Below are positions 60,813 to 63,756 of a stretch of DNA of 64,000 nt, one piece after another. Every line of letters starts with the position of its first letter. Within the stretch, counting starts at the first letter, position 1. The stretch covers positions 38,275 through 102,274 of the forward strand of contig CAVPSB010000020.1 in assembly GCA_963708025.1 (NCBI GenBank). The letters run 5' to 3'. A program made the translations under genes and the position numbers. This stretch comes from an uncultured Candidatus Rokubacteria bacterium (GTDB taxonomy: Bacteria > Methylomirabilota > Methylomirabilia > Rokubacteriales > DASRDR01). A model generated the notes under the pieces. That model was not told where the DNA came from. It did not search any database and saw nothing but the letters and a program-made list of their open reading frames with translations.

Positions 60813-60873
60813 GTCGGACGGGACCCGCGTCGTGGGGATGCGGGGCTCGTCGTCACACCAGGAGGAATGCAGC

Positions 60874-61701
60874 ATGCTCCGGTTGCAGGGCCAGGTTGCG
60901 GTCGTCACCGGCGGGGCCAAGGGCATCGGGGGAGCGACCGCCCGCCGCCTGGCCGAGGAGGGCGCGACGGTTCTCATCGCCGATGTCAACATGGAGGCCG
61001 CCGACGGGAACGCCGCGAGGATCCGGGAGGCGGGCGGCGCCGTGGAGACGCTCCGGACCGACGTCACCGTCCCTCGCGACCTCGAGCGCATGGTCGAGCG
61101 CGCGGTCCTCTACTGGGGCCGGCTCGACATCCTGGTCAACAACGCGGTGGCGCCGTACGAGCAGGGCGGCGCCGAGCAGGTGAGCGAGGAAGGCTGGGAC
61201 GCCGGCATGGCCCTGCTGGTCAAGTCGATGTTCCTGGCCGTCAAGTACGCGGTGCCGGAGCTGCGCCGGACCGGCGGCGGCTCGATCGTCAACGTCTCGT
61301 CGGTGCACGGCCTGCTCCAGGCGCCGGGCCGCCTGGTGTACGAGGTCGGCAAGACGGCGGTGATCGGCCTGACGCGCCAGCTGGCGACCGAGTACGGGCC
61401 CGACGGGATCCGGGTGAACGCGATCTGCCCAGGCCACATCCTGACCGAGCGGCTGCAGGCTCGCTGGGAAGGGAACCCGGACGGGCTCCGCTTCTTCGAG
61501 CGTCAGTACCCGCTGCGCCGCTGCGGGACGCCCCTCGACGTCGCGAACGCGATCACCTTTCTGTGCTCGGACCAGGCCGCGTTCATCACCGGTCACGCGC
61601 TGGTGGTGGACGGTGGCCTGACCGTCCAGCTCCAGGAGGACCTGGGGGTCGCGCTCGGCCGCTACATCCAGGCGCATCCCGACACCCGGTTCCCGTACTG
61701 A
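60874..61701 (+). CDS. SDR-family oxidoreductase
   Basis: TGGAKGIG, NNA, YEVGK (YxxxK), RVNAICPG. Confidence 0.93.
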   Translation: MLRLQGQVAVVTGGAKGIGGATARRLAEEGATVLIADVNMEAADGNAARIREAGGAVETLRTDVTVPRDLERMVERAVLYWGRLDILVNNAVAPYEQGGAEQVSEEGWDAGMALLVKSMFLAVKYAVPELRRTGGGSIVNVSSVHGLLQAPGRLVYEVGKTAVIGLTRQLATEYGPDGIRVNAICPGHILTERLQARWEGNPDGLRFFERQYPLRRCGTPLDVANAITFLCSDQAAFITGHALVVDGGLTVQLQEDLGVALGRYIQAHPDTRFPY

Positions 61702-61715
61702 GATTGTCGGAGGGG

Positions 61716-62882
61716 TTAGATCACCTTGTCCTGCCGGAGACGCGCGATCTCCTCGCGGGTGAGGCCGAGCTCGCCCAGGATCTCGTCGGTGTGCTGGCCG
61801 TGCGTGGGGGCCGCCGTCCGGACGGCGCCCGGCGTCCGCGAGAGCACGGCCGGTGGCGCCTGCACCTTCATCTCGCCGCGCACCGGGTGCGTCACCGGCT
61901 GGGCCAGCCCGAGGTGCTGGACCTGCTCGTTCTCGAACACCTCCTTGACGTTCAGGATCGGGCCGGCCGGGACGCCGGCGCGGTTCAGGATCGCGATCCA
62001 GTCGGCGCTCGACCGGCCGGCCAGGATCCGGTCCAGCTCGGCGTTGAGCTGCTTGCGCTGGCGCGAGCGGTCGGCCAGCGTCTTGAACCGCGGGTCATCG
62101 ATCAGCTCGGGGGCGCCGATGGCCGTGCACAGCCGGCGGTACATCTCCTGGCTCGACGCCGCGACGTTGATGTGCCCGTCAGCGGTCGTGAACACGCCGG
62201 TGGGAATCCCGGTCGGGTGGTCGTTGCCCGCCTGGGGCGGGATCTCGCCGTCGATGAGCCAGCGGGCCGCCTGGAAGTCGAGCATGGTGACCATGGCCTG
62301 CAGCAGCGACGTGTGGACCCACTGCCCTCGCCCCGACGTCTCGCGCTCGAGGAGCGCCACCAGAATGCCCTGGGCCAGGAAGAGACCGGCCGTGAGGTCG
62401 GCGACCGGGATGCCCACGCGGACCGGTCCCTGCCCGGGGAGACCGGTGATGGACATGAGGCCCCCCATCCCCTGGGCGATCTGGTCGTAGCCGGGCCGGT
62501 CGCGGTAGGGTCCCGTCTGGCCGAAGCCGGAGATGGACCCGTAGACCAGGCGCGGGTTGGTCCGGCTCAGCGTCTCGTAGTCGATGCCCAGCCGGTGCTT
62601 CACGTCGGGCCGGTAGTTCTCGACCAGGACGTCGGCGGCCGCCACCAGCCGCAGGAGGATCTCGCGGCCCCGCGGCTGCTTGAGGTCGAGGGTCATCGCG
62701 CGCTTGTTCCGGTGGAGGTTCAGGAAATCGAAGCCGAGCGGCGTCGCGACGCCGTCCAGGTCCTCGCGCGCCTCCACCTTGATGACGGCGGCGCCCATGT
62801 CGGCGAGCTGGCGGACCGCGGTGGGGCCCGCGCGCGCCCGGGTCAGATCGATCACGCGGATCTTCTCGAGTGGAAGCGGCAT
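61716..62882 (-). CDS. Class III CoA-transferase (CaiB/BaiF)
   Basis: VIDLTRARAGP, NKRAMTLDL, ENYRP, GYDQIAQG. Confidence 0.95.
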   Translation of the reverse strand: MPLPLEKIRVIDLTRARAGPTAVRQLADMGAAVIKVEAREDLDGVATPLGFDFLNLHRNKRAMTLDLKQPRGREILLRLVAAADVLVENYRPDVKHRLGIDYETLSRTNPRLVYGSISGFGQTGPYRDRPGYDQIAQGMGGLMSITGLPGQGPVRVGIPVADLTAGLFLAQGILVALLERETSGRGQWVHTSLLQAMVTMLDFQAARWLIDGEIPPQAGNDHPTGIPTGVFTTADGHINVAASSQEMYRRLCTAIGAPELIDDPRFKTLADRSRQRKQLNAELDRILAGRSSADWIAILNRAGVPAGPILNVKEVFENEQVQHLGLAQPVTHPVRGEMKVQAPPAVLSRTPGAVRTAAPTHGQHTDEILGELGLTREEIARLRQDKVI

Positions 62883-62898
62883 CGGCGGGTCTCCCCCG

Positions 62899-63603
62899 TC
62901 AGGTGCGCTCGGCGTAGGAGGCGGTGGCGGCGGCGTAGCCGGCCAGCAGGGGATGCGGGTGGGCCGCCGTGGAGCGGGTCTGCGGCAGGAAGAGCGTGGC
63001 CAGGAAGAACGGGTGATCGGGCAGCTCGACGATGCGGATCTCGCCGTCGTCCCCCACGGCGCTCACGGTCATTCCGGCCGCCTCCAGGCGCGAGCGGTAC
63101 GCCGGATTGACGCCGTAGTTGCAGTAGTAGTCCTCGGCCGCGGTGGCCACGCCGTAGAGCCGGGCGGCCCGCGTCCCGGGGAGGACGGTCACGGTCTGGG
63201 TGGTCCCCACCAGGGAGCAGGCCAGGGGGGTGACCACGAGGCGGGGGGCGTCGGGATTCGTCTCGGCGTGGTCGGCGTCCTCGACCCCGAGGACGTTGCG
63301 CGCGAACTCGACGATCGCGTGCTGGAAGCCGCCTCAGGTGCCGACGAGCGGAACCCCCCGCTCGCGCGCGTAGCGGATCGCGGCCAGCGCCCCCTCCATG
63401 TCGCGGTAGGGGCTGGCCGGCGCGATCCAGATGCCGGCGAACGGGGCGAGGTCCGCCTCGACGGCGTCCCCGATCCGGTCCGTCGCCACCCACTCGAAGC
63501 CCAGACCTAGGTCGGCCAGCGCCCGGTTCGTCGCCAGGTGCGTCGCGTTCTTCGGGTTGAAGTCGCCCACGACGCCGATTCGCCCGCGTGCGGTCGCCGC
63601 CAC
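62899..63603 (-). CDS. Stand-alone CTP-synthase-type glutamine amidotransferase domain, putative selenoprotein (Sec at 63334-63336)
   Basis: ORFs 63334-63678 and 62899-63237 are one frame: AIRYARERGVPLVGT-TGA-GGFQHAIVEFARNVLG..DADHAE...YYCNYGVN...ELPDHPFFLATLF; GTG start after RBS GGGAGG. Confidence 0.85.
63298..63322 (-). promoter_or_regulatory. SECIS-like hairpin
   Basis: GC(A)CGCGA-UC[GUC]GA-GU-UCGCG(C)GC; GU-starting loop 21 nt after UGA. Confidence 0.6.
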
Positions 63604-63756
63604 GTCCCGCCCTCCCTTCGTCACGTCGCGGATCCCGGCGATCCGCGGGATGGCCCTTGCCCGAGGCGCTCCGCGCATAGTATAGATGAGTCACGCTCGG
63701 CGCGACGTGACGTTCTCGCCGAGCGACCACCCGCCAGCTACCAGGGAGGCACGAAG

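Follow-up and report, generated by a model that had tools for sequence, protein, structure and literature searches.

Results and Discussion

A reading frame crossed by one in-frame TGA

The window analysed here, meaning the whole stretch of 64,000 nucleotides, corresponds to positions 38275-102274 of contig 20 (C20:38275-102274) of an 8.17-Mb genome in 49 contigs, with a contamination of 8.18%. On the minus strand, positions 62899..63603 carry a CTP-synthase-like gene, a predicted selenoprotein gene of 234 residues counted from a GTG codon at 63603, the terminal TGA (62901-62899) being included in the interval. Translation of 62899-63678 on this strand gave a single frame whose only internal TGA lies at 63336-63334, in the context RERGVPLVGT-U-GGFQHAIVEFARNVLG, and bears out the continuous frame described in an earlier note on this DNA. 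The in-frame UGA (63334..63336, minus strand), assigned to selenocysteine (Sec, U), is residue 90 from the GTG and residue 115 from an upstream ATG at 63678. Its position is the nucleophile elbow of glutamine amidotransferases (GATases), in the motif G-T-U-G-G-F-Q (GT-U-GGFQH).

With regard to the translation start, a Shine-Dalgarno-like sequence, AAGGGAGG, can be read on the minus strand at 63611..63618, 7 nt before the GTG. With this element ahead of it, GTG 63603 is the likelier start, and ATG 63678 is the alternative. The gene, of 234-260 residues and devoid of a synthetase domain, is split in two by the ORF listing (63334-63678 and 62899-63237). Upstream lie an intergenic region and a divergent gene for an ABC-type solute-binding protein. 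Downstream, after a gap of 16 nt, the ORF listing places a family III CoA-transferase gene (61716..62882, minus strand). Very long overlapping ORFs are also found in the window, for instance one of 747 aa at 60867-63110 on the plus strand, which runs across three genes of both strands; these are typical spurious frames of G+C-rich DNA and not genes.

Family assignment and fold

The gene is a member of the NCBIfam family NF004836 and a stand-alone homologue of the PyrG glutaminase domain. Specifically, the protein matched the NF004836 model at positions 2-227 of 228 with 299.8 bits (E 9e-90), the curated cut-off being 260 bits, and a six-frame search of its own genome with the same model assigned 292.5 bits to the gene. 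Matches to Pfam GATase (PF00117, 1.2e-07) and to Peptidase_C26 were also obtained, while CTP synthase models gave far lower scores, under their own cut-offs. The true pyrG is located elsewhere in the genome, on contig 10 (C10), as an open frame of 550 aa that scored 152.9 bits with NF004836, below the cut-off. In the sequence library searched, the NF004836-type family comprises 539 clusters at E ≤ 1e-30, which indicates that it is large and mostly Cys-containing.

An AlphaFold2 model built on a 96-sequence alignment, with very high confidence (pLDDT 96.4, pTM 0.93), presents the class I GATase fold. The best PDB matches found by Foldseek were glutaminase domains of CTP synthases (TMq 0.87-0.91), and the top 49 PDB matches listed were all CTP synthase chains, with E values from 1.5e-24 to 3.2e-13. 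By sequence, too, the solved relatives were CTP synthases only, plus a weak match to PuuD. In comparison with the PyrG glutaminase domain (PDB 3nva, 1vco, 1s1m), the fold, the nucleophile elbow and the I-E-[FY]-A-R-N helix that follows it are alike, whereas the selenoprotein family is without the synthetase domain, reads [VLQ]-P-[QE] instead of H-P-E, P-[GA]-S-P-Y instead of PGG(F)G and YYCNYG instead of HRHRYE, and has the additional conserved residues H22, C129 and C161.

Residues of the active site

We aligned the protein by profile to solved CTP synthases. The U residue was placed on the nucleophilic Cys (PfLgtCgGfQ versus PFLGICFGFQ of 3nva), and the residues L-P-Q on the H-P-E of the triad (ATlFvPQ versus ATQAHPE). 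Both placements agree with the earlier note, which had located the UGA at the class I GATase nucleophile and had read the triad positions as L-P-Q. The Cys-His-Glu triad of the window protein is therefore incomplete, with U at the nucleophile, L at the His position and Q at the Glu position. In addition, the P-G-G motif of the oxyanion strand is replaced by P-A-S-P-Y, in a family that carries P-[GA]-S-P-Y.

These features were then compared within the family. The motif G-x-C-G-G-x-Q was found in 115 of 120 close full-length homologues. The 103 homologues with a parsed triad region read T/A-L-[FY]-[VL]-P-[QME], and never His. In a wider set of 150 representatives (50% clustering), the 14 commonest triad motifs account for 104 sequences, none with His, the most frequent being LFQPE (34), LFVPQ (28) and LFQPQ (13); the other representatives were either unparsed (35) or outside the motifs listed (11). 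Among 51 representatives missed by the first regular expression, nearly all still carry T-C-x-G-F-Q, and two have Ser. The triad Glu is absent in the clade of the window gene. Since all the parsed Cys members are also without His, its loss is a family trait and not an adaptation specific to Sec. For the same reason we do not retain the proposal of the earlier note that a more acidic selenol accounts for the missing His.

Near-invariant positions of the family are G13, H22, W38, A79, R80, P85, T89, C/U90, G92, Q94, E99, C129, E157, C161, R190, E193, F199, L204, P207 and P218. For three of them (H22, C129 and C161) the two aligned CTP synthases offer no equivalent residue. Of 96 family members, at least 90% have C129 and C161, and the matching CTP synthase positions are not Cys. 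H22 is located in the first turn of helix 1, directly after strand 1. In related flavodoxin-like folds a residue contacting the nucleophile occupies an H22-like place, as in the case of Glu18 of DJ-1.

Conservation of the TGA column among relatives

An in-frame UGA that is aligned with a Cys of homologues is kept as UGA in orthologues. Specifically, 19 of 61 related genomes matched above the family cut-off, and 18 of the 19 contain exactly one TGA, the other none. After extraction and alignment, the 18 TGAs all fell in one column, in which the nineteenth orthologue has TGC (Cys). At the phylum level, 57 of 251 genomes matched at E ≤ 1e-60, giving 58 places in several families, 52 with TGA and 6 without. 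Above the cut-off, the phylum counts 55 places, 50 with TGA and 5 with Cys, the latter all in one genus (g23). The counts for the 61 and the 251 genomes include two genomes flagged as unpublished (G055 and G132), the first of which is also present in the alignments; their omission leaves the conclusions unchanged. One orthologue (G154:C145:15176-15835) has a TAG besides the TGA, and may be a pseudogene or an assembly error.

In addition, 80 loci were fetched from other taxa: 53 with TGC and 14 with TGT (67 Cys), 4 with TGA, 8 unparsed and 1 false match of the regular expression. The ratio of 67 Cys to 4 TGA is biased and gives no estimate of frequency, since one of the two search patterns was back-translated from the Cys-containing GTCGGFQH. 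The four TGA loci carry the names Candidatus Rokuibacteriota (three) and "Bacillati bacterium ANGP1" (one), and they are the nearest named relatives of the window gene. In a sample of 401 genomes from the phylum of a Desulfobacteraceae genome, the family was found in two, one with Cys and one with TGA. The tabulation of TGA against TGC/TGT recommended in the earlier note shows, accordingly, that both kinds of codon occur at this column, and supports its proposal of Sec in the place of the nucleophilic Cys in a protein of class I GATase fold.

Selection on both sides of the TGA and independent DNA

We compared purifying selection on the two sides of the codon in 29 distinct sequences (405 of 406 pairs). 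The median dN/dS was 0.300 for the 80 codons before the TGA and 0.305 for codons +22 to +134 after it. The equality of these values indicates that the downstream half is not decaying, so that the relaxed selection named in the earlier note as evidence against a selenoprotein was not seen.

Positions 63334-63336 are spanned by Logan contigs of three DNA runs and of one metatranscriptome library, with no differing letter listed there; the RNA-library contig over the codon (X15) stands for presence in that library only, not for transcription. In the three DNA runs, which are of soil type, the summed contig depth over 63283-63354 reaches 140-755, against about 8-50 elsewhere in the gene, a rise of roughly ten- to a hundred-fold. 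This peak suggests that many related soil organisms carry a near letter-for-letter identical stretch at 63283-63354.

Selenocysteine machinery and genetic code of the genome

All the components named for inspection in the earlier note were found in the genome, that is selA, selB, selD and a tRNA-Sec(TCA). The selA (597.8 bits) and selB (371.9 bits) genes adjoin each other on contig 32, with the tRNA-Sec (76.2 bits; tRNA-SeC with anticodon TCA according to ARAGORN) at about 1.5 kb from selA. The resulting compact sel locus (contig 32: 201569-206431; L001, L003, L019) has selB and selA on the same strand and the tRNA-Sec beyond selA.

The selD gene (contig 7: 91381-92304; L011) itself has one in-frame TGA at the known Sec/Cys site (...LSHGAGUACKLG...). 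A hairpin follows this UGA, with its loop about 20-22 nt after it; that the loop lies at the same distance as in the window gene we take as a soft parallel only. A second selD-like match of 270.3 bits (contig 23: 88505-89419; L012) has no stop and lies inside an open frame of 833 residues, which may encode a fusion protein or, given the high G+C content, be no more than a long spurious frame. Neither selA, selB nor pyrG of this genome has an in-frame stop and the selenoprotein gene itself ends in TGA, so that TGA is not generally reassigned.

Hairpins downstream of the UGA

RNAfold placed a candidate SECIS hairpin at nt 11-35 after the UGA (63298..63322, minus strand), with the apical loop GUCGA (63312-63308) beginning 21 nt past the TGA. 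This agrees with the earlier note, which describes a hairpin with a GU-starting loop 21 nt downstream. The folding energy of the hairpin is no better than chance (z = +0.85; of 200 shuffles, 163 gave a fold of equal or greater stability). A more stable fold than that of the window's hairpin was obtained for one Cys form, in which an unrelated hairpin forms (z -3.21). Folding energy does not separate the two forms, and was rejected as a discriminator of Sec from Cys.

Since folding energy is not above chance, the evidence for a SECIS element beyond chance is comparative, and lies in the conserved TGA column and in frozen synonymous sites. In 29 distinct sequences of about 60-78% protein identity, synonymous change is nearly absent from codons +4 to +13, and four-fold sites within them are fixed (GCG 29/29, CGC 29/29, CTC 29/29, GGG 29/29), whereas the codons just before the frozen stretch vary freely at synonymous sites. 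Among the 87 windows of 12 codons along the gene, the one starting from codon +2 has the lowest synonymous diversity, 0.026 versus a median of 0.243. In four Cys forms of the same phylum, the frozen hairpin sites vary. The hairpin with its frozen synonymous sites agrees with the SECIS-like element just 3' of the UGA proposed in the earlier note.

A different sequence, CAA CAU ACU CUG GUA GAG UAU G, was found in 7 more distant Sec forms and in the Sec form of another phylum, and is referred to here as type B, the hairpin sequence of the window being type A. The type B hairpin, CAUACUCU-GGU-AGAGUAUG, has 8 bp and occupies the same place, centred 2 nt further 5'. In the Rokubacteria-side copies G and U are again at nt 21-22 after the TGA. 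Its codons ending in A or T are conspicuous in these G+C-rich genes. The Sec forms of this type (L138-L144, L156; FATUGGFQHTL[VI]EYARNV) have a near-identical A/T-rich hairpin sequence, and come from one class-level branch of the phylum to which the window belongs, with one further genome in a different phylum. This distribution suggests that the type B gene was transferred horizontally along with its SECIS. The G of the loop is not invariant, being A in two loci (L033 and L153).

On an ungapped mixed alignment of 31 distinct Sec-form sequences, RNAalifold returned a weak compromise structure of -1.65 kcal/mol, a consensus whose weakness is accounted for by the two hairpin types being offset by 2 nt. 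A scan of 63150-63450 against Rfam, with E up to 10, gave no family match and two chance matches to miRNA models only.

A second hairpin, GUCCUCG-GGGU-CGAGGAC, is located at nt 39-56 after the UGA (63277..63294, minus strand), and its role is uncertain. At its pair 45-58, 15 sequences have C-G, 11 have U-G and 3 have U-A, with both sides changed in the last. This hairpin is kept through synonymous as well as amino-acid-changing substitutions, for example GUC...GAC to GUU...AAC in two loci (L045, L146). Some compensatory change is thus present in the second hairpin. The loops of bacterial SECIS elements usually lie nearer to the UGA than this hairpin; as it is beyond the usual distance from UGA to loop, we do not claim it as a SelB site.

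Decoding of the UGA

All together, these data very probably describe a real Sec codon in a member of a catalogued family that is not a canonical glutaminase. The Sec reading of the UGA is, by itself, well supported, and we hold it with high confidence. In the mechanism that we propose, the UGA at 63336-63334 would be decoded as Sec by the genome's own SelA, SelB, SelD and tRNA-Sec, under the direction of a SECIS hairpin inside the next ~35 nt of coding sequence, and Sec would then occupy the elbow position of the nucleophile in a class I GATase fold. We infer the insertion of Sec itself, and the decoding steps are indicated by sequence comparison.

Alternatively, the gene could be a pseudogene, with a TGA that arose by nonsense mutation or through an error of sequencing or assembly. 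The division of the genome into 49 contigs, its contamination, the indel lesions reported elsewhere in the window by the earlier note and the relative with a TAG as well as a TGA would all fit such a reading. Nevertheless, its probability is minimal, given that TGA occurs in 52 of the 58 phylum places, in several families, that the 18 orthologues examined share the column, that purifying selection is equal on either side, and that no difference is listed for the contigs that span the codon in four runs. Termination at the UGA, with an N-terminal protein of 114 residues and a separate C-terminal product from GTG 63237, would correspond to the two frames of the ORF listing. It would leave untranslated the 32 codons between them (GGFQHAIVEFARNVLG...RLV), which are among the most conserved segments of the family and run on without a break into both halves in thousands of Cys homologues; according to the model the fold would need both halves, and we regard this reading as extremely improbable. 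Observations at the protein level do not tell Sec from another residue, and the UGA could also be read through with Cys, Trp or Gly inserted, as near-cognate decoding or a variant code would bring about. Such read-through appears very unlikely in a genome with the full Sec machinery, whose selD itself has UGA at a known Sec/Cys site, whose selA, selB and pyrG are without internal TGA, and in which the gene under study ends in TGA; moreover, a SECIS would be expected to freeze synonymous sites after the codon, as is seen here.

Possible function of the Sec/Cys residue

The selenoprotein family is most likely not a glutaminase, judging from the absence of the triad His (and, in the clade of the window gene, of the Glu), the altered oxyanion strand, and the family's own H22, C129 and C161. 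The Sec or Cys residue would rather carry out covalent chemistry on another substrate, and its partners would not be the canonical His-Glu. In our estimate, nucleophilic chemistry of the acyl or seleno-ester kind, in which a residue such as H22 would serve as the relocated base, comes somewhat short of an even chance, redox or chalcogen-transfer chemistry with C129/C161 has a lower but still considerable probability, and other roles take the rest. That the amidotransferase fold bears a new catalytic arrangement, formed by Sec/Cys with a relocated His22 or with Cys129/Cys161, or has undergone a redox conversion, is a tentative idea and rather unlikely. If true, the Sec forms would be the first selenoenzymes with a seleno-ester intermediate of hydrolase or transferase type or, alternatively, an amidotransferase fold turned into a redox selenoenzyme.

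Two further readings of the function deserve comparison. In a redox or sulfur/selenium-handling protein, Sec90 would work with Cys129 and/or Cys161, for instance through a selenenyl-sulfide, instead of acting as an acyl-enzyme nucleophile. This is a real possibility, if not a probable one: in place of the two cysteines, which are widely kept in the family, the two CTP synthases have other residues; the His-Glu pair that a hydrolytic Cys requires for its activation is missing; and Sec/Cys pairs mostly mark redox-active cysteines. On the other side, the family shares with true amidotransferases the GxCxGxQ elbow, including Gln94 and Glu99, and no redox partner gene is conserved nearby. A canonical glutaminase that feeds ammonia to a partner enzyme, with Sec merely replacing Cys, would agree with the Pfam GATase and Peptidase_C26 matches and with a fold nearest to the PyrG glutaminase domain. 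We consider it improbable, because no parsed member has the triad His, the clade of the window gene is without the Glu, another sequence stands in place of the PGG oxyanion motif, Asn takes the position of the glutamine-binding Arg of HRHRYE, and no synthase partner is conserved beside the gene.

Parallels can also be drawn with known selenoproteins. In GrdB of glycine reductase and in SelD, Sec acts as a nucleophile on carbon or phosphorus, and not in peroxide or disulfide redox chemistry. The family resembles both in having Sec in place of a catalytic Cys and in having Cys-containing orthologues, whereas the folds are unrelated.

A selenoprotein family already catalogued

The selenoprotein family is already known and catalogued, and the window gene is a further member of it. 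The name of NCBIfam NF004836 already carries "(seleno)protein", and the deep-Sep study (mSystems 2025, PMC12013277) presents "Glutamine amidotransferase (COG0504, PyrG)" as a new predicted selenoprotein of Desulfosediminicola ganghwensis. The passages of that article on the PyrG-like selenoprotein describe TGA- as well as Cys-containing homologues and a SECIS-like structure, and state no experimental verification of the family. A 2026 review (PMC13188914) tabulates the PyrG-like selenoprotein with the motif GxUxG, which is present here as G-T-U-G-G, and mentions a Methylomirabilota MAG predicted to have 63 selenoprotein genes. A literature search for PRK06186/NF004836 returned that review only. 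The novelty implied by the earlier note is therefore not upheld, and the finding is sound but not new, the family being already in databases and papers.

In comparison with the catalogued NF004836 or deep-Sep PyrG selenoprotein, the window protein has the same full-length match above the cut-off, the same stand-alone domain of about 230 aa, U/C in G-T-U-G-G-F-Q and a SECIS-like hairpin right after the UGA. There is essentially no difference between the two, apart from the host and the hairpin sequence. The example named in print is that of Desulfosediminicola ganghwensis, whereas the nearest named relatives of the present genome are Candidatus Rokuibacteriota MAGs, and the hairpin is of type A in the window and of type B in the Desulfobacterota-side genome. 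The missing triad and the extra cysteines are not mentioned in the passages of PMC12013277 and PMC13188914 that deal with the family.

Few predicted selenoproteins have a hydrolase-type fold, and the family is one of them. The present gene is mis-annotated when a gene finder divides it at the UGA into two ORFs. Of mild interest is the role that an elbow Sec/Cys would play in a GATase fold from which both His-Glu and the glycines of the oxyanion motif are missing. For a first biochemical study, the present analysis adds the predominance of Sec in the phylum (50 of 55 places), the two SECIS sequence types, the family-wide loss of the triad His and of the oxyanion motif, and H22, C129 and C161 as candidate catalytic partners.

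Gene neighbourhood

To conclude the description of the locus, we searched by tblastn at 42 loci for the CoA-transferase, the solute-binding protein and the SDR of the window, whose presence next to the orthologue proved to be essentially limited to the window's own locus (L027). The CoA-transferase search gave, in addition, a weak upstream match at one locus (L148), in which an ORF matches Pfam CoA_transf_3. Pfam scans of 101 flanking ORFs at 20 phylum loci and of 89 flanking ORFs at 23 Cys-form loci of other phyla revealed no shared partner. Neighbours recur only locally and within lineages: Peptidase_M28 with isochorismatase, acyl-CoA dehydrogenase, LysR with ABM in Pseudomonas, and SHMT with RibD in Xanthomonadales-like genomes. 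On this comparison, the CoA-transferase gene appears to be a mere neighbour and not part of a conserved system. The selenoprotein gene behaves as a stand-alone unit, and its context gives no functional lead. Because neighbourhoods are not conserved, the functional part of our reading is one that we infer.

At one locus, on a Nostoc parmelioides contig (L119), the Cys form is flanked by a carbamoyltransferase, two ATP-grasp proteins and an MFS transporter, a neighbourhood that looks like a small biosynthetic cluster and could offer a lead to the substrate of the family.
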